Source of the DNA: Ectothiorhodospiraceae bacterium WFHF3C12
Lineage (GTDB): Bacteria > Pseudomonadota > Gammaproteobacteria > Nitrococcales > Nitrococcaceae
Reading direction: 5' to 3'
DNA length: 32,000 bases
NCBI GenBank assembly: GCA_013519935.1
Contig: JACDUA010000050.1
Span: 2,474-34,473, forward strand
Part shown: piece after piece, positions 9,776 to 32,000 of the stretch
Layout of the letters: every line of letters starts with the position of its first letter
Position numbering within the stretch: the first letter of the stretch is position 1
Position numbers and translations under genes: made by a program
Notes under the pieces: model-generated
Databases searched by the model: none
What the model was told of the DNA's origin: nothing
The model's input: the letters and a program-made list of their open reading frames with translations, nothing else

Positions 9776-10050
9776 GTTGGCGTATGCGCTTGTGAGGGCG
9801 ACGCCATCGAGGCCACGAATGGCCTCCACAAGACTGAGATGATTCGTCACCGTACCCTTGGCCGAGCTTGGAGGCCGTGGCATCCGCCCCTCTAGATTGG
9901 GAGGAATGGTGCGATAACCGGCTCGAAGTGAATTCCATCGGCAACCGACCGCCTGCGGAAGTCGAAGCTGAATGCCAAGAGCAACTTGCCGAGTCGGCCC
10001 AGTCCACCCTACGCAAAACAAGGGGTATCCGGAAGAGTCGGGGCGGCTCA
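9776..10050 (+). mobile_element. IS3-family OrfB C-terminal remnant plus right inverted repeat
   Basis: GDAIEATNGLHKTEMIRHR..., a frameshift, then DWEEWCDNRLEVNSIGNRPPAEVEAEC. Compare DNA.AE..NGLYK.ELI and W..W.N.RRL...IG..PPAE.E. The terminus GGTATCCGGAAGAGTCGGGGCGGCTCA (10024-10050) matches the ends at 18374 and 22843 at 22/27 positions. Confidence 0.65.
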
Positions 10051-10401
10051 CCGGCTTCAGAATTTGAGGCTCCGCATGAGCGCGGGATCCAATGCCGCGC
10101 CCATGCTACCCAACGAGTTGTCAGCCTAGCCCACCATTGCCCCGAAAGTGTGGCCTAAACATGGAGATAGTTTCGGGCCTTAGTGGTAAGTGGGGCCACG
10201 CCGCAGACGACACGTCGGTTGGAAGACTACACTACGGTGGGTGCCCACGAGTTCCGTCCTTGTCGGACATTGTGCTGCTCGCGGTCATTCTGCTTGCCCC
10301 GTTATCGCTGGCCACTAAGAGACGAAGTGGACACACCTGGATCCGAGATTACCCCAAAGCACTCAAATGGCATCGCTCTCGCCACGTAAAAGAGGGACGA
10401 T

Positions 10402-11232: not shown

Positions 11233-11235
11233 AGC

Positions 11236-11937: not shown

Positions 11938-12513
11938 GACATCATTATTAAGCGACTCCGCTTCTTGAGCCACATATCCATGCAGATGGAACAGGCGGCG
12001 CCATTGCATAGCCGACATCCGTTGCACGTGTGTTACGTCCAACTCGTGAGCCGGATTGTTGTACCTTCCATTCAACCCTAGAGGTACAACAATGAGTATT
12101 TTTTTTATCTTGTGGCTGGCAGCGGTGTTCAAAAATGAGAATAATTGATATCGATTAAGGTGTTCTAAGGTATGAAAAGACAAGATTGTGTCTATCTGAT
12201 TCCCTATTAGTAATGGTGAAATAGTGTTGGTGTAGTGATAGCAATAATGAGGCTCTATGGCGTTTCGGATAGCATAAGGCGAAATATCTGTCCCATAGGC
12301 CTCAATGCCGAAACTGCGCAGGCCGTGGACCATAAAACCCTTAGCGCAGCCAAAATCCAACACTCGGCTTGATGTCGAAAGCCCTAAGGATAATGCAGTT
12401 CGAGTCCATATTTTATTCTTGTGACTATCAAAATCATAGGACAAATAGTTCGAATATTTCGCGTCGCCGCTGTCGAAATATTCAATGCCGTATGCGCAAG
12501 GTGGTCGAATCAC
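11911..12513 (-). CDS. class I SAM-dependent methyltransferase
   Basis: Motif I RVLDFGCAKGFMV, then an acidic loop YGTDIS. The post-I/II spacing is typical. GTG start. The 3' end is convergent with the cupin gene and overlaps it by 27 nt. Confidence 0.8.
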   Translation of the reverse strand: MIRPPCAYGIEYFDSGDAKYSNYLSYDFDSHKNKIWTRTALSLGLSTSSRVLDFGCAKGFMVHGLRSFGIEAYGTDISPYAIRNAIEPHYCYHYTNTISPLLIGNQIDTILSFHTLEHLNRYQLFSFLNTAASHKIKKILIVVPLGLNGRYNNPAHELDVTHVQRMSAMQWRRLFHLHGYVAQEAESLNNDVLFASFIKK

Positions 12514-12723
12514 GAGTTGCGGAGAGTCGCTTGAGTTCGACTGTTTGTGACCATGCTGAGGCTTACGGAGAATGTCTCACGCTTTGGTGGGCGCTGCAAG
12601 CGTAATTGCGTACCGATCACTGATAGCTATTCAACAGGAGATGGATACAAGTTGAGCAAGTACCCGACGTTCTCCCCTTATCAGCAGCACTCAGCTTCGC
12701 AGTCTGGAGTTCTCCCGGTATCG

Positions 12724-12940
12724 TGAGGACCCCATCGCCTTATTGTGTGGCCTGCCTGGGGCCTCGGGAATGACGTCGCCGTCCCCGGTGGTAGAAGACC
12801 TCGATCTAGCCGAAGACATAGGCTCCGGGCGACGTCCCGCGTATTGTAGGTGCGCTTTTCACCGGCTCCATTTCCAACATGGAGAGGAATGACTCCGCAA
12901 GTACGGTTTCCTGAAATGGTTCACGATCCACGCAGATCGC
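12724..12940 (-). pseudogene. IS3-family OrfB C-terminal remnant with in-frame stop
   Basis: The minus strand reads ETVLAESFLSMLEMEPVKSAPTIRGTSPGAYVFG*IEVFYHRGRRRHSRGPRQ. Compare DNA.AESFF..LK.E....TR.EA...VF.YIEVFYNR.RRHS.LG. The terminal 23 nt match 1461-1483 with one mismatch. Confidence 0.6.
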
Positions 12941-12955
12941 GCCCGCCAAAGAGAA

Positions 12956-13939
12956 TCATTCCTGCCAGTGCGCGGCGATCACATCGTCGAGCGACTTCAG
13001 TTTACGTTCGGCTGCTATGGCGTTGACCTGATCGCGAAGCTGCTCGTTGTAGCTATAGATGGACAGCGCCTCAGCTGCGCGTACGGCCCTGAACGCCGGC
13101 GCGTTCGCTATGGTCTCAAGCAGATACTGAGTGGCGCGCTCCCTGCGCTGGAGGGCGAGCGCCTGGAACAGCAGCCTGGTCCGCGGATCGAGGGGCGAGA
13201 GGCTGTCGCATACCTCTATGAGTGGTTGCAGTGCAGCCTCAAGCCGGCTTTCACCAAGCGCCAGTGCGGCCGCTTCCTGGCGCGCCCGATCGCCACCCGA
13301 GAGCCACTCCAACGTGAAAGGCAGTGCGTCTTCTCCCGCGGCTTTGAGGAGCGAAGAAAAGCACTGCGCGATGACTTCGGGCTCCTCGTCGCCCTGAAAG
13401 ATTTTCTGCCTGATGACGATCTGGGCATGGACGGGGTTCACGAGCTCGAGCGCCTTCAGTGACCCAACGCGTGCCTGCCACTCGGCATCATTGAGTAGGG
13501 GCAGCAGCTCCAAAACTGCATTCGGGTCACCGCTCGCAACGAGCCCGAGGGCGCAGATGCAGCGTAGCTCCACCGCGGAGTCGAGCGAGCTACCGAAAGC
13601 GGGCTCCGGCTGCCTGTAGTCAAGAAAGCGTCGATAGAAGGCAGCGTCATCGAAATCCAGTTCATACAGGGCGCGGGCGATGGCGCGCTTGGCGGCGCAC
13701 GTCTTGTCCGCCTCCTGCGCGTCGTCCCCGGTAAACCGCTCGAATGCGGCGCGCAGTTCCGGGATCAGCTCGTACGCCAGTTTCTCGCCAGCGAACTTGG
13801 CCGCTTTCGCCACCAGGAAGTTGCTTCGCTCCGTCAACGCGTCTCTTAGGCAGTCGAGCGCTTGCGCCTCGGAGCCTAGCTCCACGCACTCGCGCAACCG
13901 CTCCAGCTTCTCCTCTGTTCGCAATCCCTTTCGTGGCAT
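12956..13939 (-). CDS. HEAT/armadillo-type repeat protein
   Basis: 327 aa, all-helical and Leu/Ala-rich, with recurring ~30-aa units (..A..ALG..G...AL..L...L.D....VR..A..AL). There is no enzymatic motif. Confidence 0.65.
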   Translation of the reverse strand: MPRKGLRTEEKLERLRECVELGSEAQALDCLRDALTERSNFLVAKAAKFAGEKLAYELIPELRAAFERFTGDDAQEADKTCAAKRAIARALYELDFDDAAFYRRFLDYRQPEPAFGSSLDSAVELRCICALGLVASGDPNAVLELLPLLNDAEWQARVGSLKALELVNPVHAQIVIRQKIFQGDEEPEVIAQCFSSLLKAAGEDALPFTLEWLSGGDRARQEAAALALGESRLEAALQPLIEVCDSLSPLDPRTRLLFQALALQRRERATQYLLETIANAPAFRAVRAAEALSIYSYNEQLRDQVNAIAAERKLKSLDDVIAAHWQE

Positions 13940-14091
13940 GGGGTCTCGAGCTCCATGTGACTGGTCGACCGGCCACCCCGACGACCGGAAGATCGTGGCT
14001 CAGCTGGCCGATGTACTTGAGCGCCCAGGTTGGGCGATGCGTATGCGTCTTGCTCTCCACTGCCCGCCCCGGTCCATACGCAGTCTGGCGT

Positions 14092-14472
14092 CTACGCCAG
14101 GACTCGGTAGCAGCGTCGCGCCTTGTCATAGATCAGGATCATCGGTTCATCCGTGTGCCAGTCCTCGCGGTGCGAGTAGACACGCACCGCGAGGACTTGC
14201 GGCGGCTCCGCCTGTGCCTCTGCCTCGCGAATCCAGTCCAGCCAGGTGTCGCGGATCTTCTGCGGCTCGTCCGCTACGCGCCTCGATCGGTGGAACCGGT
14301 CCCGAGGCGGAAAGACATCGGGCGCAACTTCTGTCGCCGCGGACTCCAAGCCTTCCGGCAGCGGCCTCAGGTCGCACTCGCTTACGGTGACCTCGGCTTG
14401 GTAGTCGGGCAGTCCGATGGCGCCCCGCATGTATTGGTCTGGCGTATCCCTCTCAGGACCTGGGGGTGTCAT
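14092..14472 (-). CDS. hypothetical 126-aa protein
   Basis: I prefer the internal ATG at 14472, which overlaps the upstream gene end by 20 nt. No motif recognised. The region carries strong antisense shadow ORFs, so the call is tentative. Confidence 0.45.
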   Translation of the reverse strand: MTPPGPERDTPDQYMRGAIGLPDYQAEVTVSECDLRPLPEGLESAATEVAPDVFPPRDRFHRSRRVADEPQKIRDTWLDWIREAEAQAEPPQVLAVRVYSHREDWHTDEPMILIYDKARRCYRVLA

Positions 14473-14902
14473 GGCGCCCCCTTCGTACCGCCCCGGTGCC
14501 CGCAATCGTCTCCTCCCCGACATCGGCCGTTGCACCGAGTAACCCGGCGAAGCCGTGATGAGCAGTTGGCGCATCCAGGTTCTTTGCGATCTCACCTGTC
14601 ACGTCACGCCAGTGTTGAATTCCGTATAGCCGCGACCAGCCGACCCATAGTTTCACGACCATCGGCTCGTGCCCTGGCGGACCTTCAAGCGTATACACCC
14701 GGCCCGAGGCTGTGACCGCGGTCCGAGCTTGCGGATCCAGGGACTGAACGGGGGTGCTTACGCGCCCCCGTGCCGTCTCTAGGGCGTACCCCACCAGATG
14801 CACGTCGCCGGACTTGGTCTGCATGGCTCGCCAGCGAATCAGCGCGACCTTGGGCAGGTCCTCTATGGACTGCCCGGGATGGATTCGGAAGATGAGTGGC
14901 AT
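14453..14902 (-). CDS. hypothetical 149-aa protein
   Basis: ATG with AGAGGA upstream, 12 nt after the phosphatase stop, same strand. No motif recognised. Confidence 0.55.
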   Translation of the reverse strand: MPLIFRIHPGQSIEDLPKVALIRWRAMQTKSGDVHLVGYALETARGRVSTPVQSLDPQARTAVTASGRVYTLEGPPGHEPMVVKLWVGWSRLYGIQHWRDVTGEIAKNLDAPTAHHGFAGLLGATADVGEETIAGTGAVRRGRHDTPRS

Positions 14903-14914
14903 CGGATGGTCCTC

Positions 14915-15709
14915 TTACAGCGGCTGGTCGGGATAGCGCGCATCGACGAGCGTCCAGTGCGCTGGCCAGGACAGGCGGGCCTCGAAGTCGGGCCTGGCGG
15001 CGGCCAGCCAGCCGCCGGTCTCGATAGTGACTCTATTGCCCAAGCGCCAGACGGTGCGGTCATACGTGATCGTGTGCCCATGTATGACGTGGGAAACGCC
15101 TCCCACCGACTGCGGATCTCCTGGGACCGGCGGCCCCACGTCCGCGACGGGCATTCCGCGGCTGCCGGCCTCCCGGTCCCAGAGAAGTGGGAGCATGTCG
15201 CAGAGCGAGAGCGAGGACGCACAGATGTGTGTCACCAATCCTGGCCAGTCGAGACCGGGCGGCACGCTCGCGTGAACGACGCCAACAAGTCCCTCCCGTG
15301 TTGGGATCTCGATGGCCAGTGGCAGCCGAGCCAGGGCGTCGAGTACAGCGTCCTGATGGAGATCCGATAGGGCCCGGAACCAATTGTGTTCGTGGCACAG
15401 ATGCTCGCCGAGGCAGACGCGGCTGTGGTTCTGGAGCCACTCCGGGAAACGACTTTCGCTCAGGATGAGCGAGGCGTCGTGGTTGCCGAGCACGCTGTGG
15501 AACCAGGGCTCGACAAGCCAATGTATAACGTTTCCGGACTCCGCGCCGCGGTCCACGAGGTCCCCCACGCAGATCAGTCTGTCGACAGCTGGGTCGAAGT
15601 CGACGCGCTCCAGTTCCTGCTCCAGGGAGCTGAAGGCGCCGTGGATATCGCCCACGACGATGTCGCGGCCGCTCTCGTTCAAAGGGAGACGCTTGAAGAC
15701 CTCTGCCAT
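14915..15709 (-). CDS. PPP-family (lambda/PrpA-like) Ser/Thr-Tyr protein phosphatase, metallophosphoesterase fold
   Basis: The full motif set is present: VVGDIHG (15638-15652), CVGDLVDRG, LGNHD and VIHGHT. Confidence 0.85.
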   Translation of the reverse strand: MAEVFKRLPLNESGRDIVVGDIHGAFSSLEQELERVDFDPAVDRLICVGDLVDRGAESGNVIHWLVEPWFHSVLGNHDASLILSESRFPEWLQNHSRVCLGEHLCHEHNWFRALSDLHQDAVLDALARLPLAIEIPTREGLVGVVHASVPPGLDWPGLVTHICASSLSLCDMLPLLWDREAGSRGMPVADVGPPVPGDPQSVGGVSHVIHGHTITYDRTVWRLGNRVTIETGGWLAAARPDFEARLSWPAHWTLVDARYPDQPL

Positions 15710-15728
15710 AGCTCAATCACTCAAAGTG

Positions 15729-17636
15729 TTATGTCATGTAGGTGTGCGGGTTGGACAGCCGCAGGGTGGCGTCGGGAGCCGATCCCTCGTCTATGCGGAT
15801 ACTCGGTCGAACCGCGCGCCTGAGCGCCTCCTTGACCTTCGGGACGGGTGAGCGAGGCAGGCCGGCCAACCGCTTGATGCGCCACTCGGTGACGGACTCG
15901 CCGCGGCGGGCGAACTCGCGAGCGGCCCACGCGACCCGCCTCACCTGCGCCGCCTCAACCGACTCCGTGCACTCGGCAAGCGCAGCCCGTGTCTGAGGTA
16001 ACAAGTGGCGGTACTTCTCGTAGGTGGCGGTCGCGTCCACTGTCCGCAGTAGGGCGGTGCGAGATAGCCGGCGGGGTTTGAGTGGGCAAGCCAAGGCCTG
16101 CGTGGCGGCTTGCCGGATCTCGCTCGCAAGTTGCGAATCGCGTCCTGCCCAGTCGCACAGGCGGCGGCGAGGCCGGGGTCTGCGTGGGGGCTGGAACTGT
16201 GCTCTGAGCCATTCGTAGTCGTGCCTGTAGAACCAGGCATAGGAGGCGGAATGCATCGCCCGGTAGTCGGACAGGGAGCCATCCGCGCGGTGCCGTCGGA
16301 ACCGGGCGACGCGCCGATGCTCCTGGGCCCGGCGACGGGACAGCTGGTGGTTACGCCATAGGCTTTTGAGCTCCGGGTTTGCGGCGAGCGTCCGGTAGAC
16401 CGTCGATGTCGACACACCGGTCCTATCGACGGTTTCATCGACACTGCAACCACCCCGAAGCACACGAATGATCTCCTGCTCCTTTTCGTTACTGATGTGC
16501 TTGCGACGCCGGGGCGTCGCCACGCCCAGTGCCTCTGCGCGGAGACGCACGGTCGTGATGGAAAGCCCAAGCCGACGGGCAACCTCGGTCAGCGTGAGGC
16601 CCTGACTCCCGATGAGTTGGAGAAGTTCTGTGGCCGACTCGTCGTCTTCGTGCTGTTGATCCGACGCGAACGCTACCGGCGCTGCAGTGGTGCGAGGCGG
16701 CGCGTAGTCCAGGAATCGCCCCAGGTCGCCGAAGAGCCAGCTGATCAGCAACAGATGCTTGGCGGGATGCTTGCCGGTGCGATGGGGCCTGAGCAGGCCG
16801 GCCAGCCAGTCGCATTCGCCATGCGGGTCCAGGCGCAGCCCGTTGAAGAGCGGCGTTGCACGAAGCGCCGCGTACTCGGCGCAGAACGCCTCGTGGATCT
16901 CGCCCTGGCGAAGCCGGCCGCTGGGGGTGGTCAGCCCCAGCTCGGCGAGTCTCGCTCGGTAGGTGTCACGCCAGCCGTCGGCCACACTTGCGGGAAGCCG
17001 CGCGGTAAGAAGCTGGTGGCTCAGTTGGGCAAGAGCCACCAGAGACGCCGGAGGTGCATCAGCACGACCCGGCACTCGGCCACCCACACCCGCGTCTGGC
17101 AGGTACAGAGCGTGACGGGCATGCCGCCCGCCAACGTCAACGAGTGGCACCAGCCACTGGTCGGGGTGGCGATGGCAGGCGGCCACGCCCGGTAGTTGAT
17201 GGGAGACATGGGCGTAGCCAACGCCATAGGCCGCACGATCCTCGACCACGCACGCGGGGCAACACTGCGGCCGGGGCGGCGAGCGCACGCCGGCGCGAGT
17301 GAGCCCAAGGCCCATCCACAGCCGGTGCCCTTCAATCCCTTGCATGGCCTGACCCAGCTGCGCCGCCTGCGCCCGAGAGAGGCAGGGCCGGTAGTACGCG
17401 ATTGCCGTGTGATGCTCGCTGATCCACGCATCCTGCCTGGTGCGATCCCGAACACTGCTTCCGAGAGCGCCGAGCCGCGTGGGCAGCGGCGTTGCGAGTA
17501 TGGCGTGGCGATCCTGGACGCACCGCCGAAGCGTATCGGTCCCGCAGTGATCGCCCGAGAGGAGGTATCGCCGACTGATCCAGCTGTGCACAGTCTCATC
17601 CGGGAGGGGCTCGAGCTGGAAGGTGGGCGGGGGCAT
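15729..17636 (-). CDS. tniQ: TniQ/TnsD-like protein (Tn7-type target-selector family) with two C-terminal HTH units
   Basis: The N-terminus LEPLPDETVHSWISRRYLLSG and the later CCPACVVEDRAAYGVGYAHVSHQLPGVAACHRH fit the TniQ pattern (P.p.E.l.S...R..; CP.C......G..Y....W.l.....C..H). HTHs: LTLTEVARRLGLSITTVRLR and VDETVDRTGVSTSTVYRTL. Confidence 0.8.
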   Translation of the reverse strand: MPPPTFQLEPLPDETVHSWISRRYLLSGDHCGTDTLRRCVQDRHAILATPLPTRLGALGSSVRDRTRQDAWISEHHTAIAYYRPCLSRAQAAQLGQAMQGIEGHRLWMGLGLTRAGVRSPPRPQCCPACVVEDRAAYGVGYAHVSHQLPGVAACHRHPDQWLVPLVDVGGRHARHALYLPDAGVGGRVPGRADAPPASLVALAQLSHQLLTARLPASVADGWRDTYRARLAELGLTTPSGRLRQGEIHEAFCAEYAALRATPLFNGLRLDPHGECDWLAGLLRPHRTGKHPAKHLLLISWLFGDLGRFLDYAPPRTTAAPVAFASDQQHEDDESATELLQLIGSQGLTLTEVARRLGLSITTVRLRAEALGVATPRRRKHISNEKEQEIIRVLRGGCSVDETVDRTGVSTSTVYRTLAANPELKSLWRNHQLSRRRAQEHRRVARFRRHRADGSLSDYRAMHSASYAWFYRHDYEWLRAQFQPPRRPRPRRRLCDWAGRDSQLASEIRQAATQALACPLKPRRLSRTALLRTVDATATYEKYRHLLPQTRAALAECTESVEAAQVRRVAWAAREFARRGESVTEWRIKRLAGLPRSPVPKVKEALRRAVRPSIRIDEGSAPDATLRLSNPHTYMT

Positions 17637-18272
17637 GGGGTCACTCCGGTGACGTTGGGTTGGCTGGTCGGGGCTAGGGGCTCAGGGTGACGATCATCAT
17701 GAGCTCAGTAAGGCACATCCAGCACCGGGCGTCAATAGACAACTTATTGATTTAATTGTTTTTTTATTAATTCGGCACGCCCTGGACCACTAGAGAAAGA
17801 CAACACCGGAGACCGTTCAGCCGGCAGCGTCTTTCTCGTCAGGGCAATAGGGGGCTCGGTTCGTAGCGGCAGGCGGCGTAAACGATCCGGCCGCCACCGT
17901 TGTCGCCGTAGAACGAGATGAAATCTTCCTCACCGGGTAGGAGCGTCGTACTGGCGAAATCTTGCCGCGAGCATGTGATGTGGCTCTTGGGGGGGTTGCA
18001 CGCAGTAGTGGATATTGATCCGGGCACTGCAGCTGTTGATTACGACTGTGTCGTACTTCTGGTGTTGAACGGCCACGCAGTGCGTCGCACTGTCGCCAGC
18101 AACAGTGGGAGGCCTCGGCAGTGCGAAGAGGGCTAGGGTAGCAAGTATGCATGAGCATGGCGCCCGGCCTTCTCAACCGGTACCTCCTCATTGCCTATGC
18201 CGATCCTCGGTGGGGTTTTCCTCCGTTTCCACAGATAGACCCGCTATGGCCGGCAAGGGTCCAGAAAGCATT

Positions 18273-18374
18273 CACTTAGCGACCCGCTCGGAAATGTCGG
18301 GGGAACATTTCGCAAAAGATGCTCATGACTTAACCATCAAGGTCTCGAGTATCCGGAAACGCCGGGGCGGTTCA
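18273..18374 (-). repeat. solo IS3-type terminal segment (IRL plus leader), copy 1 of a ~102-bp direct repeat
   Basis: Reverse complement begins TGAACCGCCCCGGCGTTTCCGGATACTCGAGACC, an IS3-family-style TGAAC... terminus. It matches 22743-22843 with 12 mismatches and one 1-nt indel. Confidence 0.6.
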
Positions 18375-18664
18375 GCTCGATCTCTGGCGGATACCGCAAC
18401 ACAGGACGAGACACCACTCGCCAAAAGGCCGAACTCCTCATACGGCATACAGGAGAACTTGCGAAGGCTGGTCAGGGAGACTGAGTGAGCAGCGCAGTTC
18501 GGTAGAAGGTCGTCGGTCGACCTATAAAATCAAAGAGTTGCACTGCTGGTCGGTTGAACTAACCTTTCTCTATGTTGATTGGGTGTCGCACTGCGGCAGT
18601 GCCAGCGACTCTCGGGGCCTGGCCACTGTGGCGGGAAAGGGACACGCCGGAGGGGCGCCAAGTC

Positions 18665-20227
18665 ATGGAAAAGATTAGCCTTTTCGCCGTCACGATTGGA
18701 ATCCTCTGCCTGGCCACTTCGGCCCAGGCGACCGAAGCTACCCCATATCCGGCTCAACCGAACAGTGTCTCTGAGTGTCAGCCTGCGTTCCAGGCCAATA
18801 TAAGGCAGTCCCAGGCGCTCAATAGACGCATCAGGGCATGCATCTCCTTTGACACCATGGACTCTGAGAACTCTGTGCCCACGCCCGAGTGCGACAACAT
18901 GCGCAACTTCAGCCAGAAAAGTACTCCGCATCCGAAGTGTGCCGGCCTCTACCGCCAACAGTGCCGACTGAAGAATTTCAACGACGAAGAGTACGACGCC
19001 TGCCGGGCACGGGCCCAACGCGCGGAGGCAGCCCGTCAGGCTAAAGCTCGGGCGGCGAAGCGTGAACGCCAAGAGGCCGCCCGTCGTGCAGCTTCCCATA
19101 GGCGGGCAATTGAGCAGCGTGCCGCAATACAGAATGCCTACCGCGAACGTCTTCGATCGCGCCGTCGCGCGGCCAATGAGGCCCAAGCCAGAGCCCAGGC
19201 GAAGGCTGAGGCGGTTGCCCGTGAGTTTATCGCCTCACAGCTGCCCGAGTCCGCGCGCAAGCTGTGGTCGATGGGCGAGAAGGGCAAAGGTACCTATAAG
19301 AACGTCAGCGCGATGGTCGATGCCAGTAGCTGGGTCGCGGGCATCGAAGCGGTCGGCGGCGTCGGGCGAGACTTGAATAGCGCTGCGAATACCCACCCAA
19401 TATCGTCGACAAGTACGGATTTGGCGATCGATATGCTTGTACGGCTGCATGCCGCTGCGGCCGGCGATCTTGACGCGGCTATGGCCCAGATCGGCGCACA
19501 GGCGCCAGCTCAACGGCTTGCGGCGCGCTGGCGCCGTGTCGGCGCCGCTCACCAGCGTGACTTCACGTCGAAGGCCGCTCCAATAATCCCAGGTTATGCG
19601 GGCGGTGCCGGTTCGGATGAGGTGAGATCATTCGGCCTGCCCACCGAGCTTCACACCGCGTTGACAGAACTCGAGCGCTGGCAGGCGTCCACCGCACGCC
19701 AGCGCAAGGCAAGCTATACACAGCAGTACCAAGCTCTGGTGGATCAGGAGAAGCGCATTGCGGCGCAGCGCCAGCGCCAAGCCGAGGAGGCCCGGGCCGC
19801 GGCGGAGCGAAGAGCGGCTGAGCGACGTGAGGCTGAGCGGCGTCAGCGTGAGCGCGAGCAGGTGCGTCAGCTCGCGCGGCGTTGCGACGACCTCAAGTCA
19901 AGAACAATGGCGACTGCCTCTAAGGTTTCGCTGGACTCCGCGGAAGTTGCGTTGGATCACGTCCAGGAGCGGCGGTCCAGGCTCCGGCGGATGGGGTGCG
20001 CCCCCCACCATGTGCGCGATCTCGATCGGGTGGCAGCCCAGCTGCGTCGCTCCGTGAGAATGGAGCAGGAAGCCCGGGACCGGGAACTGCGCCAAACCAT
20101 CGAAGGCGGTATCGAGTTGCTGCGGCAATACCAACAGCTTCAAGGTGGGTCTTCGGGAGGGACCGGCGGCGGTTACGGCGGTGGCTGTGCGTCGGATGAG
20201 GCGGGTTGTCTGAATCCTCTGGACTAG
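18665..20227 (+). CDS. secreted Cys-rich N-terminal / long Arg-Ala-Glu coiled-coil protein with Gly-rich tail
   Basis: Internal ATG at 18665 with GGAGGGG upstream. Signal peptide MEKISLFAVTIGILCLATSAQA. Long AERRAAERREAERRQRE-type heptad-like stretches. The tail is GGSSGGTGGGYGGGC. Confidence 0.7.
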   Translation: MEKISLFAVTIGILCLATSAQATEATPYPAQPNSVSECQPAFQANIRQSQALNRRIRACISFDTMDSENSVPTPECDNMRNFSQKSTPHPKCAGLYRQQCRLKNFNDEEYDACRARAQRAEAARQAKARAAKRERQEAARRAASHRRAIEQRAAIQNAYRERLRSRRRAANEAQARAQAKAEAVAREFIASQLPESARKLWSMGEKGKGTYKNVSAMVDASSWVAGIEAVGGVGRDLNSAANTHPISSTSTDLAIDMLVRLHAAAAGDLDAAMAQIGAQAPAQRLAARWRRVGAAHQRDFTSKAAPIIPGYAGGAGSDEVRSFGLPTELHTALTELERWQASTARQRKASYTQQYQALVDQEKRIAAQRQRQAEEARAAAERRAAERREAERRQREREQVRQLARRCDDLKSRTMATASKVSLDSAEVALDHVQERRSRLRRMGCAPHHVRDLDRVAAQLRRSVRMEQEARDRELRQTIEGGIELLRQYQQLQGGSSGGTGGGYGGGCASDEAGCLNPLD

Positions 20228-25152: not shown

Positions 25153-25458
25153 ATGTATACGCCCAAACCGATAGACACCCGTTCGATCGTGCTGCCATCG
25201 GAACTGAACGATTTGCAGGAGCGACTCGCAAGGCACGTTCACGACGTATGGGCGACGGCGCGCCTCGCAGAGGGCTGGACGTACGGACCGGAGCGCGATG
25301 ATCAGGAGAAGACGCACCCAGGGCTAGTGGCCTTCGACGATCTGTCAGAAGAAGAGAAGAAGTACGATCGCGCGACGGCCTTAGAGACGTTGAAAGCTGT
25401 TATTGCCGCAGGCTGGCGTATTCAGCCCGCTGGCGGCAGAGCGACAACAGAAGATTGA
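25153..25458 (+). CDS. stand-alone RyR-domain protein (single ryanodine-receptor-type repeat)
   Basis: LARHVHDVWATARLAEGWTYGPERDDQEKTHPGLVAFDDLSEEEKKYDR is the canonical RyR repeat pattern (H..W.......GW.YG..R.....HP.LV.(Y/F)..L.E..K..DR). Confidence 0.8.
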   Translation: MYTPKPIDTRSIVLPSELNDLQERLARHVHDVWATARLAEGWTYGPERDDQEKTHPGLVAFDDLSEEEKKYDRATALETLKAVIAAGWRIQPAGGRATTED

Positions 25459-25641
25459 TGTGCCGCGCTTGCAGCCGTTACAAAGGGCGGATCCGGACGG
25501 ACGGTGGGCTTCGCCACGGAAAACCGGTTGGAGGCTCGGGCACTCGAGTTTCTGACGAGCAATTGATGCGCAAACCTGGCGTTGGCCGTGCGTGCCAGGC
25601 CTAGGTCTTCAGACATCAAGAACAATTAGGAAGACGGACTT

Positions 25642-28600
25642 ATGGCCCGTGTGGACCCACGTCGCCTAGTAGGCGCGCCGTTCCGACTTGTTCGCCGAGT
25701 TCTGGCGCTCGCCCTGAACCGAGTACTGCGTTGGGACTGGCTCCGGCGCAACCTGTGGTGGGTGCAGGGTCTGCTGGTAGTCGCAACACTAGCCGGTGGC
25801 ACGTTCGCATCATTCGCAGTGGGTTTAAGAGAACCACAACAGGGTCTAAACGCCCTGACCCATTTGTACCGCGCTATTCAACTGTTTATCGGTGAGGGCG
25901 GCTGGACCGCTGACCCAGCCGATCTGAACGGGCTTGAGCTTACGGCGCTGAACGTCGCCCGCTTCGCTGGCCCGGCTGCAACAGTCTCGGTGCTGTTAGC
26001 GCTGTTGCGCTCCTTCCATCATCGCGCGCTGTTGTGGGCTCGGCCAAGTGAAGGCCATGTCGTGCTGTGTGGCCTTGGGGACGCCGGTTTCCAGTTCGTG
26101 GAGGCCTGGTTGGATGGCGGTGCCGAGGAGGTTTTGGGGTCGGGGCTTCAGAACTGGCGGCGCGCTGACGAGCACCTGGTCGTTGTGGAGGCTGATCCCG
26201 ACCGACCTGAAGTGGAGGCCTGCACGGAGCGGGGCGTGACGGTAATGGTCGGTAATGCATGCGATCCAGCCGTGTTGAGGGCCGCGAATGTGCAGCACGC
26301 GCGCGATGTGGTCGTAGCGCTACCCGAGGATCGCCACAATATCGAGGCTGCCCTCGCCACCCGGCAGCTTCTGGAAGCCTACCGCACCGACGGGCATCAA
26401 CGAGCGGATCCGCTTCGTGTGTTCGTCCACGTCGACAGCACGTGGTTGAGCGAGCGTCTCGAGTACTTCGCCCAGTTTGGAACCGATGCACCTGCTGCCG
26501 AGATTCGCTTCTTCAGCTTGTACGAAGCCGCTGTCCGCCGAGCATTGGCAGAGCACCCGCCAGACCTCTTCGCCGCCGTCCTCGACCGCCCCAGTCCGCG
26601 ATTCGCGATCTACGGATTTGGCATGATGGGGCAGGAAGTGCTGAGGCAACTGCTGCGGATCGCGCACTATCTACCGGAACAAGCGCCGTCATTCGTCATT
26701 TACGACCAGAACGCGCAGACCCGCGAGGCTGAGTTCAAGCGGCTATTTCCGGAAGTAGACCGCCATTTCGATGTCGACTTCCAGTTGATGCCTGTGGCCG
26801 CTGAGGCGGGACTGACCGTTGAGGGCGCCGCGGAGATCGCGAACGATGTCGTCCAGCATTTCATTTGCTTCGATTCCGATCGGCGTAGCGCGGCGTTCGC
26901 GCTATCGCTGCGTCAGGCATTGCTTAAAGCTGGCCCGGACGCCCATGGAACGCCGCGCAACACACCGCTCATGGTGCGTATGCGCCACCGCGACGGCCTG
27001 GCTACCCTTCTGATGCCGGCACGGCGGCATGCAGCTCCGGAAAACTCGGATACCGAGGAGCGCATCCCTGACAATCTCTACCCGTTCGGAATGGTTGAGG
27101 ACTTGTTTACACCACAGAATCTGTTGGCGAGCCGTTCGGACCAATACGCGCGCACCCTCCACGAGTGCGGATATATGGCGACACGTGCTAGCACGACGCT
27201 ACCAAAGGTGCCCGTTGACGATGACGCCGAAAACACCAGAACTCCGCGAATAACCCAGCTTGCATTCTGCGGCGGCGGCTTGGAACGGGATGGCGCCGAT
27301 ACCTTGCGATTCGTCGCCTACACCGAAACGGGCCGAGCGTTTAGCTTCGACTTGATAACCAGGGGCAACGAACGGGGCGCCATCAAGCGGGCCAGCGATC
27401 ACTCGGACGCGGATCTCACAACTCCCGGAGAAAAAGGGGCTGAACATACGCAGGGGACGCGCGTGCTGGAGCTCACTGTTAAGCGGGGGCGAAGTGGCAA
27501 AGTGACAGAGAGGTTCACGGTTCCAGCCGACGACCCCTCGGCCGTATACCGAGTGGAGGCTGATGGCGATGCCAGGGATTCCAGATGCCGGGCATTTCGT
27601 GTCTTCGGGGAGCGCATCACGGCGCTCGCGACCTCACCGGATCAGACCTGGCTGGCCATGGGCACGGATGCCGGCGCACTCCGGAGTTGGCGCATCGACG
27701 GAGAAGAAAGCGTGCTGCCAACGGCAGCGCGCTCGGGCGAGGTGTGGCGGCGTGCGAGCGGGGTACCCTGGCGCGATCTACCCGCCCGGTTCAAGGCTTC
27801 CAACCGCCGTCAGGCCGATCACATGGAAGTGAAACTGCGTGCGGTGGGCTGCGCGAGCCACCCCAGGGACAAGGAAAGCGGCAAGTCCGACAAGCAGGGC
27901 TACGGATGGTGGCGGACAGCGTTGGAGCAAGACCACAGGTTGCTTGGAGAGACGCCGCTGCTGCGGCTTGCAAGGCTTGAGCACCAAGCCTGGAACGCAG
28001 CGCACCACGCAGCAGGGTGGCGACATGGTGAGCGCCGGGTCGATGCTGCCCGCGTCCATCAGAACCTCATCCCCTGGAGCGACCTCGACGCCGGCACCCA
28101 ATCATTCGATTCGAACCATGTTCGCCAGATTCCCCATGTGCTCGACGGCAGCTTGCGAGATCAATTCTCCGGGATCGATTCGGCTGGCGATACGGACATC
28201 GAGCGTCGTCAGCTCACGCGGGTGGTGCGAGTCGGCGTCATTGGCCCCGGCCCCATTGAGTTCCATCAGCTCGCCAAGGAGTCCGACTGGACAATTGAGA
28301 GAGCTTCCGATGTCATCGCCCAGCGAGCACAAGATAGGCTGAGCGAAATCCGGGATCGTTGGGCCAGTCTGGGCGGCGCGACGTCCATGACGTTAATGTC
28401 GGCCCTACGCGAGGGCGCGGAGCGCTCAGTCGCTGAGCACCTTCTCAAGCCGGAAGGGACACCGACTCGATCCTTGGGCTTGATCGCGGTTCTGCCTCTG
28501 CCTTTCGAAGTATTCGTCAATGATTTCCGCCGCGATGAGGACGACCCGCGCCGTTCGGTCCGCGAGTTCACGGAATTGGTCGCAAGCTCGGATCATTACA

Positions 28601-28998
28601 TAGAGCTACCGCAGCGATTTGGCTCCTTGGAGGACGTTGGTTGGGCCGATCTCAGGGCCGGCTTAAACAAGGCGCGAAGGCTCCAGTATGAGCTCTACGC
28701 GGCTTTCCTTGTTCAACACTGTGACGAACTCATCATCATCCCGGGCGTCACGGATGAAGACTGGGCAGACCGGCTGAAGACGACCGAAACGGGAATGGCG
28801 GAGGCGCAGGCAAGGGTTTGGCACCTGGCACGCGACTGGTGGCGAAACCGCTCCGAGACGTCGGCGCGGATGCCTGCTCGTTACCGTTGGACCACGCACT
28901 ACCGGGTAGCGTTGGACCGTCCAGAGTCCAGCGCCGAGCAACGCCGATCAGCCGAACTCTCCCTAGGCACCAGTATCGGGCATGGAGAGAGGTCGTAG
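25642..28998 (+). CDS. 1118-aa membrane protein: 2 TM, two Rossmann (TrkA-N/RCK-like) units, an unassigned middle, a RyR repeat and a SLOG-like C-terminal module
   Basis: AGGAAG SD. TM helices near nt 25760-25830 and 25950-26010. GxGxxG units at 26059 (VVLCGLGDAGFQF) and about 26601 (FAIYGFGMMGQEV). RyR repeat at 27958-28140. The C-terminal module starts VVRVGVIGPG at 28222. Confidence 0.85.
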   Translation: MARVDPRRLVGAPFRLVRRVLALALNRVLRWDWLRRNLWWVQGLLVVATLAGGTFASFAVGLREPQQGLNALTHLYRAIQLFIGEGGWTADPADLNGLELTALNVARFAGPAATVSVLLALLRSFHHRALLWARPSEGHVVLCGLGDAGFQFVEAWLDGGAEEVLGSGLQNWRRADEHLVVVEADPDRPEVEACTERGVTVMVGNACDPAVLRAANVQHARDVVVALPEDRHNIEAALATRQLLEAYRTDGHQRADPLRVFVHVDSTWLSERLEYFAQFGTDAPAAEIRFFSLYEAAVRRALAEHPPDLFAAVLDRPSPRFAIYGFGMMGQEVLRQLLRIAHYLPEQAPSFVIYDQNAQTREAEFKRLFPEVDRHFDVDFQLMPVAAEAGLTVEGAAEIANDVVQHFICFDSDRRSAAFALSLRQALLKAGPDAHGTPRNTPLMVRMRHRDGLATLLMPARRHAAPENSDTEERIPDNLYPFGMVEDLFTPQNLLASRSDQYARTLHECGYMATRASTTLPKVPVDDDAENTRTPRITQLAFCGGGLERDGADTLRFVAYTETGRAFSFDLITRGNERGAIKRASDHSDADLTTPGEKGAEHTQGTRVLELTVKRGRSGKVTERFTVPADDPSAVYRVEADGDARDSRCRAFRVFGERITALATSPDQTWLAMGTDAGALRSWRIDGEESVLPTAARSGEVWRRASGVPWRDLPARFKASNRRQADHMEVKLRAVGCASHPRDKESGKSDKQGYGWWRTALEQDHRLLGETPLLRLARLEHQAWNAAHHAAGWRHGERRVDAARVHQNLIPWSDLDAGTQSFDSNHVRQIPHVLDGSLRDQFSGIDSAGDTDIERRQLTRVVRVGVIGPGPIEFHQLAKESDWTIERASDVIAQRAQDRLSEIRDRWASLGGATSMTLMSALREGAERSVAEHLLKPEGTPTRSLGLIAVLPLPFEVFVNDFRRDEDDPRRSVREFTELVASSDHYIELPQRFGSLEDVGWADLRAGLNKARRLQYELYAAFLVQHCDELIIIPGVTDEDWADRLKTTETGMAEAQARVWHLARDWWRNRSETSARMPARYRWTTHYRVALDRPESSAEQRRSAELSLGTSIGHGERS

Positions 28999-29500
28999 CT
29001 GCGCTACTTCCCGCTTTCCTCCGAGGACAGGCTTGAGGGGCGCTCTGCGACTATACCTTCTTCACCGTGACGGTGGATTAGGTAGAGCGCCAGCGCGATG
29101 ATGCTGATCCCGCCAGCCAGCATCAGCACGGACTCTTGCTTGAACTCGGGGGACTTCTTTCTACACTTGTTAACGATGGTTCGTTCAAATCCATCGAAAG
29201 CCTCCCACCGGGAGCAGCATTAGTGAGGGAAAGCTCCAGAGGTTCTCCTGGACCAATCGTTCGACAGACGCCCGCTCTAGAGGTGGGCGCGATGGGGCTA
29301 CCTAGCCCGACGCCCCGCTCGCCTATTCAACTCGGCTCCGCCACACGCTCTCATGGTGCCCCTCCGTCGCTGCAACCAAGTGGCCGTAGCCCTAAGGAAG
29401 CAGTACCGTACGACGCGCCCGCTGACCATCCTATATACACGATGGCGCGCAGCCTCAACGGGCTGACGCAACGGCGAACATAGGGCGAGACTCTCCGACA

Positions 29501-30370
29501 ATGCCACACGAAACGAGTCAATATGCCGGACTTATTGTCTACGCTTCCCCCGACAAGGAAAAGGCGCTCCATATTCAGCGCAGTCTAGAAGCGAGAGGGC
29601 TTCTTTGCGCCTTGGCTTCACTAGACACAATCGCCACTGAACAATCCACCCGTTATTTTATCGCGCAACTTAACGTTTCTCTGTGCATCATTCCAATTCT
29701 TTCCACGGCCGCCAACGATTGTCGATACTTTCGGTTCGCAATTTCTAAATCTGTAGCGCTGGGAAAACCAGTCTACCCCTTTCGCGTAGAGGACATGATT
29801 CCATCGCCAGACTTAGAGTTCTTCATCTCGACCACGCAGTGGATAGAGGCTTGGCCAGAGATCTCGCCGAGCCACGTTGAAACCCTTTACACTTCTGTTG
29901 CGCATCATCAAGACAATCCTCGGTCGGGCGAGCCAAAAGCGCACCTCCACAAGAGGCATACACGATGGCCCGTTCGAACGGCGTCTGTAATCGTTCTCAC
30001 GTTCGTCGCGGTATCGGCCGCGAATTGGTGGAGCCCAAACATAACGTATATCGGCAACACGGGCACACCGATTCGGGACATTAACGCGTCAGACATACGC
30101 TTAGAGGCGATACCCTATCTTGGCGCGTACCGCGTCTATATTCGCTTTGGCCCAGGCATAACTGATAAATATTCAATTGAAGAGTCTTTATACTCCCTCG
30201 ACGAGGGCGAGTTTCAGAAAGCGAGCCGCTCCAGATATTTTGGAGTTTCGAGAAAAAATCAGTTAGATTCGGTAAAGCTGAAGCTTAAGCTTCGAAGCGG
30301 AGAAGTTATTGGCCCTTTAGGCCCATATAACGCCCGCGTTCTTCCTGGCTCTTTTGATAGGGAGGGCTGA
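29501..30370 (+). CDS. TIR-like (catalytic Glu missing) single-TM protein, paralogue of the next gene
   Basis: LIVYASPDKEKALHIQRSLEARG...KPVYPF aligns with the TIR of the next ORF. TM helix VRTASVIVLTFVAVSAANWW. The C-terminal YSLDEGEF...GPLGPY motifs are shared with the next ORF. Confidence 0.7.
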   Translation: MPHETSQYAGLIVYASPDKEKALHIQRSLEARGLLCALASLDTIATEQSTRYFIAQLNVSLCIIPILSTAANDCRYFRFAISKSVALGKPVYPFRVEDMIPSPDLEFFISTTQWIEAWPEISPSHVETLYTSVAHHQDNPRSGEPKAHLHKRHTRWPVRTASVIVLTFVAVSAANWWSPNITYIGNTGTPIRDINASDIRLEAIPYLGAYRVYIRFGPGITDKYSIEESLYSLDEGEFQKASRSRYFGVSRKNQLDSVKLKLKLRSGEVIGPLGPYNARVLPGSFDREG

Positions 30371-30506: not shown

Positions 30507-32000
30507 ATGGTAGGCGTGTCAAGCGAACATGGGCGAAAAAACCAGGCCGCCGAACACAGCGCGTTTATAAGCTACGCGTCTGAAGACCGAGAGACGGCTA
30601 ATTCGGTGTGTAGCGTGCTAGAGCGCAAAGGGCAAAGCTGCTGGATTGCTCCTCGGGACGTACAACCGGGTCATGACTACGGGGAAGAGATAATAAGGGG
30701 CATAGAGCAGTCCCGAGCCGTAATCGTAATTATCTCGGATTCGGCTAATCGATCTGTGTTCGTCGCGCGAGAGGTAGAACGCGCTGTAAGCAAGAGAAAA
30801 CCTGTCTTTCCCGTCAAGACCGACGGGTCGTCTTTGTCTAAGAAGCTTGAGTTGTTTCTCGCCACCGCAAGGTGGATTGATTATAGGGAAGGGGCACTAA
30901 CAGATTCACTCGCCGAGTTGTCTCATTATTTAGATGACGAGAGGGCGCTCGCGGAAGGCGAGGCGCTCTCGAAGCGCGCACTGTGGCGCGCGCGCTTACC
31001 ACGGCTTGCAATGGCGGCAGCGTCGCTATTTGTGGTTGTGGTCGGCGCTGTGGTGGTCGCGAACTGGTATATGGCAGAACTGCTGAAGGATCGGGGTTTT
31101 GACGATACTGCCAGCCTGTCCTCACTTGATACAAAGGACTTTGCGATTGACCGAGTCGATTTCGATTCTCACTCTCCTCCCGCGGTACCGAGTGTATGGC
31201 GTGTCTCTATCCAGCTTCCCGGCCGAGTGCTTCGGGGTCCCTTGACGGAAAGTTTCTTCAGCGGCTCTATTGAGTACTCTCTCGATGGCGAGAGATTCGA
31301 GGCCTCTATAAGCCCGCACTCGATAAGGCTTACGGGGAAAGAACACATACAATATGATCGCATATGGTTTAGGCATGTCGAGCACGATGGCACCCGACAT
31401 GGACCGTTTGGGCCCTATGAACTGGACTTGCGGGATGTGGCGCTGGGGGCCGTAAAAAGGGAGGTGCGCGAAAACGACAAAAGTCTCTCAACTGGATCGG
31501 ATCAAGTTGGCACAGAAAACGGAGAGGCAGAGTGTGAGGCGATGACTGAAATCGCGGATATTTCCTCGGTTACCCGTGACTGCATTATCGAGGTTAGCGG
31601 GTACGGCGACGGCGAAATCTTGGCAGCGGGTTTGAGTGAAGCAGGAGAGTTCAGAGACTTCGTCTGGCAAAACGCGGCTCTCATTGATCGCGTTGAATAC
31701 TGGATAGAGCGTGATGGCGGTGGGGGTGAGAAGGAGTTCGATCAAGGGGAAATCGATATAGCGGGCAGGGAAGTCGATGGGTTTGCGAGTTATGAAGAGG
31801 CGGATGAGTACTGGAAAGAGGCGCTGACGGTTGATTTGCCGCAACATGCGAGACGATTTTATGGACGTCTGGTTCTGATAGATGGATCAGCGACGCTGAT
31901 TGAAAGAGTGGAGGTCGAGGCCGTGGGGTCCGTCATTGACGAGAATTCAGGGGCCGTCATTGATGAGAATCCATTCGAGGCATTTGAACCTCTGCGGTAG
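30507..32000 (+). CDS. TIR-domain (TIR_2-like) single-TM protein with large C-terminal domain
   Basis: FISYASEDRETANSVCSVLERKGQSCWIAPRDVQPGHDYGEEI...VIVIISDSANRSVFVAREVERAV..KPVFPV. The Glu89 codon gag lies at 30771-30773. TM helix LAMAAASLFVVVVGAVVVANWYM. The stop codon is the last triplet of the window. Confidence 0.85.
   Translation: MVGVSSEHGRKNQAAEHSAFISYASEDRETANSVCSVLERKGQSCWIAPRDVQPGHDYGEEIIRGIEQSRAVIVIISDSANRSVFVAREVERAVSKRKPVFPVKTDGSSLSKKLELFLATARWIDYREGALTDSLAELSHYLDDERALAEGEALSKRALWRARLPRLAMAAASLFVVVVGAVVVANWYMAELLKDRGFDDTASLSSLDTKDFAIDRVDFDSHSPPAVPSVWRVSIQLPGRVLRGPLTESFFSGSIEYSLDGERFEASISPHSIRLTGKEHIQYDRIWFRHVEHDGTRHGPFGPYELDLRDVALGAVKREVRENDKSLSTGSDQVGTENGEAECEAMTEIADISSVTRDCIIEVSGYGDGEILAAGLSEAGEFRDFVWQNAALIDRVEYWIERDGGGGEKEFDQGEIDIAGREVDGFASYEEADEYWKEALTVDLPQHARRFYGRLVLIDGSATLIERVEVEAVGSVIDENSGAVIDENPFEAFEPLR

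Follow-up and report, generated by a model that had tools for sequence, protein, structure and literature searches.

What does a bacterial locus do in which two genes with RyR repeats, one of them encoding a channel-like membrane protein, are followed by two TIR genes? Such a locus lies in a stretch of 32,000 nucleotides (nt) from Ectothiorhodospiraceae bacterium WFHF3C12 (hereafter the window; assembly GCA_013519935.1, contig JACDUA010000050.1, positions 2,474 to 34,473). An annotation made without database searches, the sequence-only reading, had drawn attention to the two RyR genes and had proposed that they form a two-protein, ligand-gated membrane effector. We propose, tentatively and at a little under an even chance, that the locus encodes a Thoeris-like module in which an ADP-ribose-type signal made by a TIR protein gates the channel-like effector through its RyR pocket, with the small RyR protein buffering or ending the signal. 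The unit probably consists of four co-oriented genes: the small RyR gene, the large-protein gene, TIR1, and TIR2. The proposal is built on the domain identities of these proteins, the conservation of pocket residues in both RyR repeats, and the recurrent linkage of related genes to TIR genes.

The locus and its genes

The genes and intervals of the locus are as follows (window coordinates; aa, amino acids; TM, transmembrane).

25153..25458, + strand: small stand-alone RyR-repeat protein, 101 aa, ATG start (Pfam RyR, E 6.6e-35)
25459..25641: 183-nt spacer between the small and large genes, without a terminator-like hairpin on the + strand
25642..28998, + strand: large protein, 1118 aa, ATG start, with a channel-like 2TM region, tandem RCK units, an insert, an RyR repeat, and a Rossmannoid (SLOG-like) module
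29133..29152, + strand: terminator-like hairpin (consensus match only), within the 502 nt that separate the large gene from TIR1
29501..30370, + strand: TIR1, 289 aa, with a TIR domain, one TM helix, and a C-terminal domain (TIR_2, E 1.6e-6)
30507..32000, + strand: TIR2, 497 aa, complete, with a TIR domain, one strong TM helix, and a C-terminal domain (TIR_2, E 3.7e-22)

The sequence-only reading had described two open reading frames (ORFs) here with caspase and TIR genes as neighbours. Both ORFs are present at these positions, on this strand and at these sizes, 183 nt apart, and the neighbours were recovered as two TIR genes downstream and a caspase-like gene at 7300-8352. An AGGAAG motif lies 12 nt 5' of the ATG of the large gene. 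Terminator-like hairpins are no more numerous in the sequence than in shuffled sequence, and Rfam and tRNA scans of the window gave no matches.

Both RyR repeats carry the pocket residues of RyDEP

The small protein is one complete RyR repeat, as had been claimed: PF02026 covers residues 2-91 and profile positions 1-90 of 91, scoring 119.7 bits against a gathering cutoff of 27.4. It matches the R12/R34 repeats of the animal receptors RyR1-3 very strongly (E about 1e-61 for whole chains and up to 9e-21 per repeat), and it also matches DyoEdafos gp78/RyDEP (35% identity, E 9e-7 by tblastn; 38% identity in a MAFFT alignment). In the large protein, Pfam places the repeat at aa 775-830 (E 6e-7), where its 30.1 bits stand just above the same cutoff. 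The two repeats are 31% identical over 71 aa (E 8e-9), and their alignment is gap-free across the core, in agreement with the position-for-position correspondence noted earlier. The expectation that Pfam would recognise an RyR repeat in each of the two proteins, and TrkA_N in the larger (aa 173-246, E 3.6e-15), was likewise borne out.

RyDEP provides the functional reference for these repeats. This mycobacteriophage RyR-domain protein, reported in a May 2026 preprint, is a homodimeric glycosidase; it and six of eight tested phage homologues bind the cyclic ADP-ribose (cADPR) isomers 2'cADPR/3'cADPR (PMC13232231). In the ligand pocket, W78 lies stacked against the adenine and H100 is in contact with the phosphates, with H75 and D117 forming the catalytic dyad for cleavage (PMC13232231). 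Two characterised homologues are nanomolar sponges, most homologues with conserved residues bind without cleaving, and the reaction product, linear ADP-ribose (ADPR), remains in the RyR pocket (PMC13232231). The preprint covers viral proteins only (PMC13232231); the RyDEP structure is probably PDB entry 35tm.

All four of these residues have counterparts in both proteins of the window. RyDEP H75/W78/H100/D117 aligns with H30/W33/H55/D72 of the small protein (MAFFT) and with H781/W784/H806/D823 of the large-protein repeat. The W78, H100, and D117 columns are invariant in the alignment, and a His stands opposite H75 in the small protein, the large repeat, and the small protein of a second locus, L003 (L numbers denote loci and P numbers individual proteins). 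H781/W784/H806/D823 is invariant across the 8-member close clade of the large protein. Across the 147 RyR matches in the wider family, the first His is kept in 139, the Trp in 137, and the Asp in 116, with H, S, N, or T at the phosphate position.

The small protein belongs to a widespread, cellular family of stand-alone RyR proteins of ~95 aa, with 267 relatives at E<=1e-15 that are 55-69% identical to it. Further relatives, up to 56% identical, lie on viral contigs, and these raise a different explanation, in which the small gene is selfish and serves anti-defence: a mobile element would carry it, as the gene of a RyDEP-type sponge or hydrolase, against resident TIR immunity, and its place beside the large gene would be a coincidence. 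The homology to RyDEP with the full catalytic tetrad fits this idea, and a TnsD/TniQ-like gene together with compositional patchiness in the window suggests mobile DNA. We nonetheless consider it highly improbable. The closest relatives of the small protein are on cellular-looking contigs and lie repeatedly beside TIR genes, divergently or in the same operon, which would be odd for an inhibitor unless it had a regulatory role. No phage structural or replication genes occur near the small gene among the ORFs scanned, its neighbours being cellular or island genes, and viral contigs yielded no homologue of the large protein.

Gene contexts in the stand-alone family are varied. Six relatives were looked up, and in two of them the RyR gene follows an FtsH-like protease gene in an ordinary context. 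An FtsH-like AAA/Peptidase_M41 gene lies directly 5' of the stand-alone RyR gene at L025 (4873-6282), L026 (514-1923), and L029 (3-1480), and also at L030 and L031; this pairing recurs in two separate gut/Clostridia-type lineages without a TIR connection. In P0165 (JGI 3300047160), an RyR gene 69% identical to the small protein (4976-5275) is followed after 20 nt by a gene with a weak NUDIX match (5296-6201), and TCAD9/TPR-S conflict-system genes are found nearby on the contig. The RyR and NUDIX-like proteins may form a two-step degradation pair, cADPR to ADPR to AMP.

The large protein resembles an RCK-gated potassium channel that has lost its filter

The large protein can be divided into five regions.

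25732..26040, + strand: M1-P-M2 region, aa 31-133, with a helix, a short pore-helix-like helix, and a helix (AlphaFold2 helices 31-63, 71-83, 97-133)
26056..27189, + strand: two Rossmann/RCK units, aa 139-516, a GsuK-like tandem (TrkA_N, Foldseek)
27190..27750, + strand: lineage-specific beta-rich insert, aa 517-703, containing the 'WD-like' stretch
27751..28176, + strand: conserved linker (WxxLP..SNRxQADH..KLR) and single RyR repeat, aa 704-845 (Pfam RyR)
28204..28896, + strand: Rossmannoid alpha/beta module, aa 855-1085, assigned tentatively to the SLOG superfamily (YAcAr/YpsA-like)

Prediction from the family alignment with AlphaFold2 gave a model (mean predicted local distance difference test score, pLDDT, 71.7; predicted template modelling score 0.72) with high confidence in three parts: the half made up of the membrane and RCK regions, the RyR repeat, and the C-terminal module. 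In the RCK region pLDDT was mostly 85-95. Two hydrophobic helices had been noted in the sequence-only reading; they fall at about aa 40-63 and 102-123, either side of LYRAIQLFIGEGGW. The two GxGxxG units reported behind them were also located, as GLGDAG at 144 and GFGMMG at 325. Foldseek returned GsuK (4gx1/4gx0, E 2.6e-9) as the best match, followed by TrkA, Slo1, and MthK; full-length GsuK chains matched at E about 1e-8 over 513-517 aligned columns. GsuK is a K+ channel of the 2TM type in which the RCK domains occur in tandem, and its structures were determined with ADP and NAD present. These matches support the claim that this is a channel-like membrane protein with ligand-binding cytoplasmic domains.

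The pore itself departs from this template. The Ion_trans_2 profile of Pfam matched neither aa 1-153 nor the whole large protein. BLASTP nevertheless aligned aa 34-243, including the pore, with P0156, a relative that has a true Ion_trans_2 pore (E 8e-6). In this alignment 'LYRAIQLF----IGEGGW' stands opposite 'VYVCVQIITTVGFGDIP', so that the TVGYG-type filter is missing through a 4-residue deletion; at the filter position, 'LF----IGEGGW' is set against 'IITTVGFGD' of the true channel. Because the P0156 alignment spans the pore with the filter deleted, the large protein is, by this comparison, a derivative of an RCK-gated K+ channel whose selectivity filter has been lost.

The sequence-only reading had left about 230 aa after the RCK units unassigned. 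That region corresponds to aa 517-703, and no Pfam family matches it. The suggestion of a WD-like stretch within it was rejected on the basis of a lack of any WD40 match and of a low-confidence model. The insert is modelled as beta structure at pLDDT 22-50 and is private to the query; close relatives carry other, equally anonymous inserts at another point.

Modelled alone, the C-terminal module forms a five-stranded Rossmannoid alpha/beta domain (pLDDT 83). Its Rossmannoid character, proposed earlier, was thus upheld by a confident model, and the further label 'SLOG-like' received weak support. Matches to SLOG profiles were weak or sub-threshold throughout (YAcAr in 7 of 18 family members, best E 6.6e-5; YpsA in 2 of 18), and the one checked scored 13 bits against a 28-bit cutoff. 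A profile search of PDB sequences gave no match for the module, and a fold search of the PDB gave only generic Rossmannoid matches (best E 0.013). The family consensus reads GxGHR ... LAEGADR ... WDG ... GGT. A SLOG-like identity is plausible for this module.

The large protein belongs to a very large family. An exhaustive HMMER search found 3,807 representatives at E<=1e-3; a word-indexed homologue search returned just three proteins with the large protein and seven with the family profile. Of 152 listed proteins, namely the query, 150 representatives of the family, and two matches found earlier, 147 carry one RyR repeat. The family core of about 580-600 aa comprises the 2TM region, two Rossmann/RCK units, the conserved linker, and the RyR repeat. 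The C-terminal module is present in a subset, namely members of about 770 aa and the closest relatives of the query (840-1,533 aa). Relatives of the large protein were absent from the plasmid collection.

At two of the distant loci, L001 and L014, homologues of ~790 aa (P0002 and P0155; 2TM-RCK-RyR-(SLOG-like)) lie in a conserved block whose other members are LacI, IlvD/Edd, FecR, two cNMP-binding proteins, and a CHASE2-guanylate/adenylate cyclase. The arrangement hints that their branch is tied to cyclic-nucleotide signalling rather than to TIR.

TIR genes recur beside both kinds of RyR gene

TIR1 and TIR2 are paralogous (23% identity, E 2.6e-16), and both are unusual in layout, with a TIR domain, a single TM helix (156-176 in TIR1, 161-194 in TIR2), and a common C-terminal domain. 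TIR1 is probably inactive because alanine occupies the column of the catalytic glutamate. TIR2 retains the glutamate and shows a weak Pfam match to ThsB_TIR, weak PADLOC matches to ThsB, and weak similarity to AbTIR and others, making it a candidate signal synthase. The missing glutamate of TIR1 suggests that the paralogues are an inactive/active pair.

A locus search with an 8-sequence close-clade alignment returned four genome loci and eight metagenome loci. In a uniform hidden Markov model scan, TIR genes were found in five of the six close-clade loci with usable flanks, as against none of four loci of distant homologues. The catalytic glutamate is also retained in the TIR genes of L002, L005, L008, and L009. 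The neighbourhoods of the close relatives are as follows.

L009: the ATG of the TIR gene overlaps the stop codon of the large gene (ATGA); NACHT and SIR2 genes flank the locus
L005: TIR-NB-ARC-TPR gene upstream; CAP12-type TIR gene 19 nt downstream, then TIR-nSTAND1
L008: CAP12-type TIR and TIR-NB-ARC-TPR genes upstream
L002: TIR-STAND-TPR gene 2.3 kb away
L004 (Halomonas): nSTAND1-ankyrin and SLATT genes; no detectable TIR gene

The TIR gene of L009 (11963-12190) stops just past the catalytic glutamate, shortly 5' of an IS3-family transposase (12671-14139), and L009 looks like an inactivated copy of the system. The stand-alone RyR family shows the same association on unrelated contigs. Three of the six relatives looked up have an adjacent TIR gene, which is divergent in P0160, divergent with a weak TIR match in P0180, and in the same operon in P0164. 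RyR-TIR and large-protein-TIR are therefore both recurrent links. The sequence-only reading had thought a conflict setting plausible, and in agreement with this the closest relatives sit among TIR, STAND/NB-ARC, SIR2, and SLATT genes and not in K+ transport operons.

The kind of TIR protein involved bears on a second explanation. TIR enzymes could deplete NAD+, and the large protein could act as a sensor of nucleotide state that responds to the fall in NAD+ or the rise in ADPR through its RCK units and RyR pocket, altering the membrane potential. The best fold matches are GsuK structures with ADP and NAD bound, both GxGxxG motifs of the large protein are intact, and linear ADPR stays in the RyR pocket of RyDEP (PMC13232231). 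Moreover, the TIR-STAND proteins of L002, L005, and L008 are of a kind commonly regarded as NADase effectors, and a recent Thoeris survey excluded them on that ground (10.64898/2025.12.03.692087). This explanation offers no reason, however, for a co-encoded RyDEP-like protein that would bind or hydrolyse a signal. Where TIR genes of the plain or CAP12 type are tightly joined to the large gene as in an operon, by overlap in L009 and at 19 nt in L005, the arrangement resembles a two-component system, and the strict conservation of the tetrad throughout the TIR-linked clade speaks for a specific ligand. We regard a nucleotide-state sensor as distinctly unlikely.

The small and large proteins are paired only sporadically

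The sequence-only reading had suggested that the small protein may supply a missing second repeat in trans, as a detachable regulatory or decoy subunit, and had made this depend on joint conservation of the two genes. In that form the suggestion was not supported. A stand-alone RyR gene adjoins the large homologue in two of about ten loci, the window and L003:

L003 (Hydrogenedentota metagenome-assembled genome, 7.5-kb contig): complete stand-alone RyR gene at 345-656 and large homologue at 665-3553, 9 nt apart

Since only these two show adjacency, the pairing of small and large genes is sporadic and does not constitute a conserved two-gene module, and an obligate in-trans repeat is not supported. 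In L003 the large protein has its own repeat cut to the first helix (LEHQRF..GWR); the contig has no TIR gene and carries carbamoyltransferase genes downstream. No annotated TrkA/RCK neighbour occurs at the six stand-alone relatives, and a re-scan of five stand-alone loci (L024, L025, L027, L029 on its downstream flank only, and L032) found no relative of the large protein; the 1587-aa gene beside P0165 lay outside this re-scan.

Physical pairing of the small protein with the single repeat of the large protein, rebuilding the R12-like two-fold module of eukaryotic receptors with the small protein as an obligate or detachable regulatory subunit, would be compatible with the signalling proposal. 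In the window the two genes are co-oriented at close distance with no terminator-like site between them, and RyR repeats act as dimers or pseudo-dimers, as in the RyDEP homodimer and in R12 of ryanodine receptors, a tandem repeat pair (PMC13232231). L003, with a complete RyR gene directly 5' of a large homologue whose repeat is truncated, is the one case that fits. Against this stand the limited adjacency, the absence of 2TM-RCK homologues from the re-scanned flanks of the stand-alone genes, and the membership of the small protein in a separate conserved family that is far closer to it than the large repeat is (55-69% identity against 31%). In addition, the 147 single-repeat proteins lead one to expect pairing between subunits; as RyDEP homodimerises (PMC13232231), the repeats of neighbouring subunits could pair without a helper. 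We consider pairing in trans unlikely. A 107-aa ORF 5' of the large gene in L007/L008 was considered as an alternative small partner and rejected, having no Pfam match and an implausible Cys/Pro/Ser-rich sequence.

A proposed signalling module and the evidence against it

In the module that we favour, a trigger such as phage infection would lead the membrane-anchored TIR2 to make from NAD+ a signal derived from ADP-ribose, either a cADPR isomer or a related molecule. In the cytoplasmic tail of the large protein, this signal would be bound by the conserved H-W-H-D pocket of the RyR repeat and perhaps by the SLOG-like module as well. The large protein would form a GsuK/MthK-type assembly, a tetramer by analogy, in which a tandem-RCK gating ring sits over a filter-less 2TM pore. 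Once the ligand was bound, the pore would open or be distorted, and the resulting collapse of the membrane potential would stop growth or phage replication. The small protein would act on the same signal by binding or hydrolysis and serve as an intrinsic buffer or off-switch, comparable to the ring nucleases in type III CRISPR, and might dock on the large protein's repeat as well. Among Thoeris systems, types II, V, and X have outputs established to be membrane-disrupting or ion-channel effectors (10.64898/2025.12.03.692087). Of the interpretation given in the sequence-only reading, the ligand-gated membrane effector in a conflict setting is retained, and a second repeat in trans is given up as an obligate part.

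A number of observations weigh against this proposal. PADLOC has no model for the small or the large protein, its matches among the neighbours are at the domain level only, and no defence-database model matches the large protein. The Halomonas locus combines a close relative with conflict-type genes and no detectable TIR gene. The window's own TIR genes begin 502 nt past the large gene, across a gap with a terminator-like hairpin, and their GC content (0.505 and 0.540) is clearly lower, by 5-10 points, than that of the neighbouring RyR genes (0.585 and 0.623). Because of this gap, the hairpin, and the lower GC, the TIR genes of the window may have arrived separately and may be transcribed separately. 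Elsewhere, the linked TIR proteins are mostly TIR-STAND/NLR-like. Proteins of this kind are usually regarded as self-contained NADase defence proteins. Defence genes also cluster in islands, so adjacency can reflect island accretion, and the sample of linkages is small, at about six plus six neighbourhoods, some of them related (L005 and L008 have common gene content). It is from homology and from these neighbourhoods that we argue for the identity of the signal, the gating, the toxicity, and the role of the small protein. Given that conserved RyDEP homologues mostly bind without cleaving, the activity of the small protein cannot be read from its sequence. In the large protein, the glycine motifs GxGHR and GGT of the C-terminal family are eroded in the window copy. 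Finally, the loci of distant homologues, L001 and L014 among them, show conserved, housekeeping-looking synteny without TIR genes; RyR/RCK sensing in the wider family is therefore not intrinsically immune.

Several of these points would be explained if the large protein were an ordinary physiological channel, that is, a member of a housekeeping, nucleotide-regulated family that sits in an island with a generic RyR protein and unrelated, accreted TIR genes. The very large size of the family (3,807 representatives), the non-defence synteny of its distant members with LacI, IlvD, cNMP-binding, and CHASE2-cyclase genes, the GC discontinuity and gap before the TIR genes of the window, the lack of a PADLOC match, and the housekeeping contexts of some stand-alone RyR genes are all consistent with this view. 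It does not account for the contrast between close-clade and distant loci, with genes overlapping at one junction and 19 nt apart at another, or for the TIR genes beside half of the stand-alone RyR genes looked up, on unrelated contigs. TIR genes are rare in bacterial genomes, occurring by our own estimate in well under 1% of random 20-kb windows, and recurrence of the linkage by chance is for this reason very unlikely. An ordinary channel in an island thus seems to us quite improbable.

If the signalling module is real, the large protein would found a new Thoeris-class effector family, with the RyR repeat as a new sensor and the filter-less RCK channel as a new effector chassis in TIR-based bacterial immunity. 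TIR-STAND (NLR-like) proteins, usually set aside as stand-alone NADases, could then feed a dedicated membrane effector. In a comparable way, plant TNL immune receptors feed Ca2+-channel helpers. A host RyDEP-like gene beside TIR genes would be the first candidate for a built-in signal terminator in Thoeris-type signalling.

A broader proposition is that bacteria possess a complete axis in which TIR makes a cADPR-type signal, an RyR repeat binds it, and a cation-channel-like protein opens, with a host RyDEP-like enzyme or sponge as the off-switch; we rate this as rather unlikely in its full form. One bacterial locus here combines an RyR repeat, a channel chassis, and candidate synthases of a cADPR-type signal. 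If the axis exists, it would set a precedent in prokaryotes for cADPR acting directly on ryanodine receptors through their R12 repeats, a long-debated idea, and would provide a small, tractable bacterial system for asking whether a channel-attached RyR repeat turns cADPR-type ligands into gating. For animal ryanodine receptors, that question is raised explicitly in the RyDEP preprint (PMC13232231).

Other features of the window

A TnsD/TniQ-like Tn7 target-selector gene lies at 15729-17636 on the - strand (TnsD, E 5.3e-44). Genes for tnsA/B/C are not beside it, and the gene at 18572, on its expected tnsC side, is on the opposite strand and unrelated. The TnsD/TniQ-like gene could be an orphan; it could also be left over from a Tn7-like element with this island among its cargo.

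Three back-to-back or overlapping ORFs of 482, 350, and 460 aa occupy 5870-9752 on the + strand. The middle one is the caspase-like gene (Peptidase_C14, E 6.5e-15), both flanking ORFs have no Pfam match, and the trio may be a separate conflict system. A patch of low GC follows at 10000-13000 (0.45-0.53, against ~0.62 in the surroundings), containing two ORFs without a family match (10402-11232 and 11236-11937) and a methyltransferase on the opposite strand (11911-12513).

Between 18572 and 22386 on the + strand, a 726-aa ankyrin-repeat protein matches the PADLOC candidate PDC-M72A (E 2.5e-33); the start of its gene is overlapped by a 551-aa ORF with a signal peptide, a coiled coil, and an Arg/Ala-rich composition. 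In Halomonas L004, the nSTAND1-ankyrin gene (13766-18988) is directly 3' of the large homologue and matches PDC-M72A as well (E 6.4e-46). Ankyrin proteins may recur as partners.

Comparison with known systems

Like GsuK, MthK, and Slo1, the large protein has a 2TM M1-P-M2 domain followed by two RCK (TrkA_N) domains per subunit. It differs from them in having no TVGYG-type filter, no Ion_trans_2 match, and about 600 extra C-terminal residues made up of the insert, the RyR repeat, and the SLOG-like module. With eukaryotic ryanodine receptors it shares an RyR repeat on the cytoplasmic side of a cation-channel-like protein, although it has a single repeat per chain where they have tandem pairs, and its context is bacterial. 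The channel cores are unrelated, being of 2TM-RCK type here and of 6TM RyR/IP3R type in the eukaryotic receptors. The C-terminal module is comparable to the SLOG superfamily (ThsA SLOG, YpsA, YAcAr, TRPM MHR1/2) as a five-stranded Rossmannoid domain with weak profile matches in 9 of 18 members; weak E-values throughout, the lack of a specific structural match in the PDB, and the loss of the glycine motifs in the window copy set it apart.

The small protein resembles RyDEP in being a single RyR/R12-type repeat with the aligned H, W, H, and D, and the large repeat keeps the same tetrad. Phage RyDEP is found beside NAD+-salvage genes, whereas the small gene lies in a bacterial chromosome region by TIR genes and an RyR membrane protein, and its product belongs to a distinct, highly conserved ~95-aa cellular family.

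The closest parallel is Thoeris, in which TIR genes likewise adjoin a multidomain protein where a membrane or toxic module is combined with a predicted binding domain for an ADPR signal. The C-terminal module of the large protein, tentatively SLOG-like, would have a counterpart in ThsA and ThsD, and the channel-like character of the large protein as an output recalls the Thoeris types with membrane or channel effectors. Thoeris types I-XI include the membrane effectors ThsC/ThsF and the type X 'ion channel' ThsK. The Thoeris survey lists 29 effector types, membrane effectors and type X among them, and deliberately removed Avs/STAND TIR proteins (10.64898/2025.12.03.692087). The terms 'RyR', 'TrkA', PF02026, and PF02254 are absent from the survey text and tables examined (10.64898/2025.12.03.692087), and no paper among those searched combines RyR, SLOG, and TIR. 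Within the same text and tables, the large protein falls into none of the described effector types (ThsA to ThsL, or the 29 listed), type X being compared by description only, and no described Thoeris effector uses an RyR repeat, which would be the sensor here. The partner TIR proteins also differ, being mostly TIR-STAND/NLR-like or TIR-TM and not small ThsB, and this locus has an extra RyDEP-like gene. Set apart from type X by description only, the module would thus be of a known kind, TIR signalling defence, in which the sensor, the effector, and the host RyDEP-like accessory are new.

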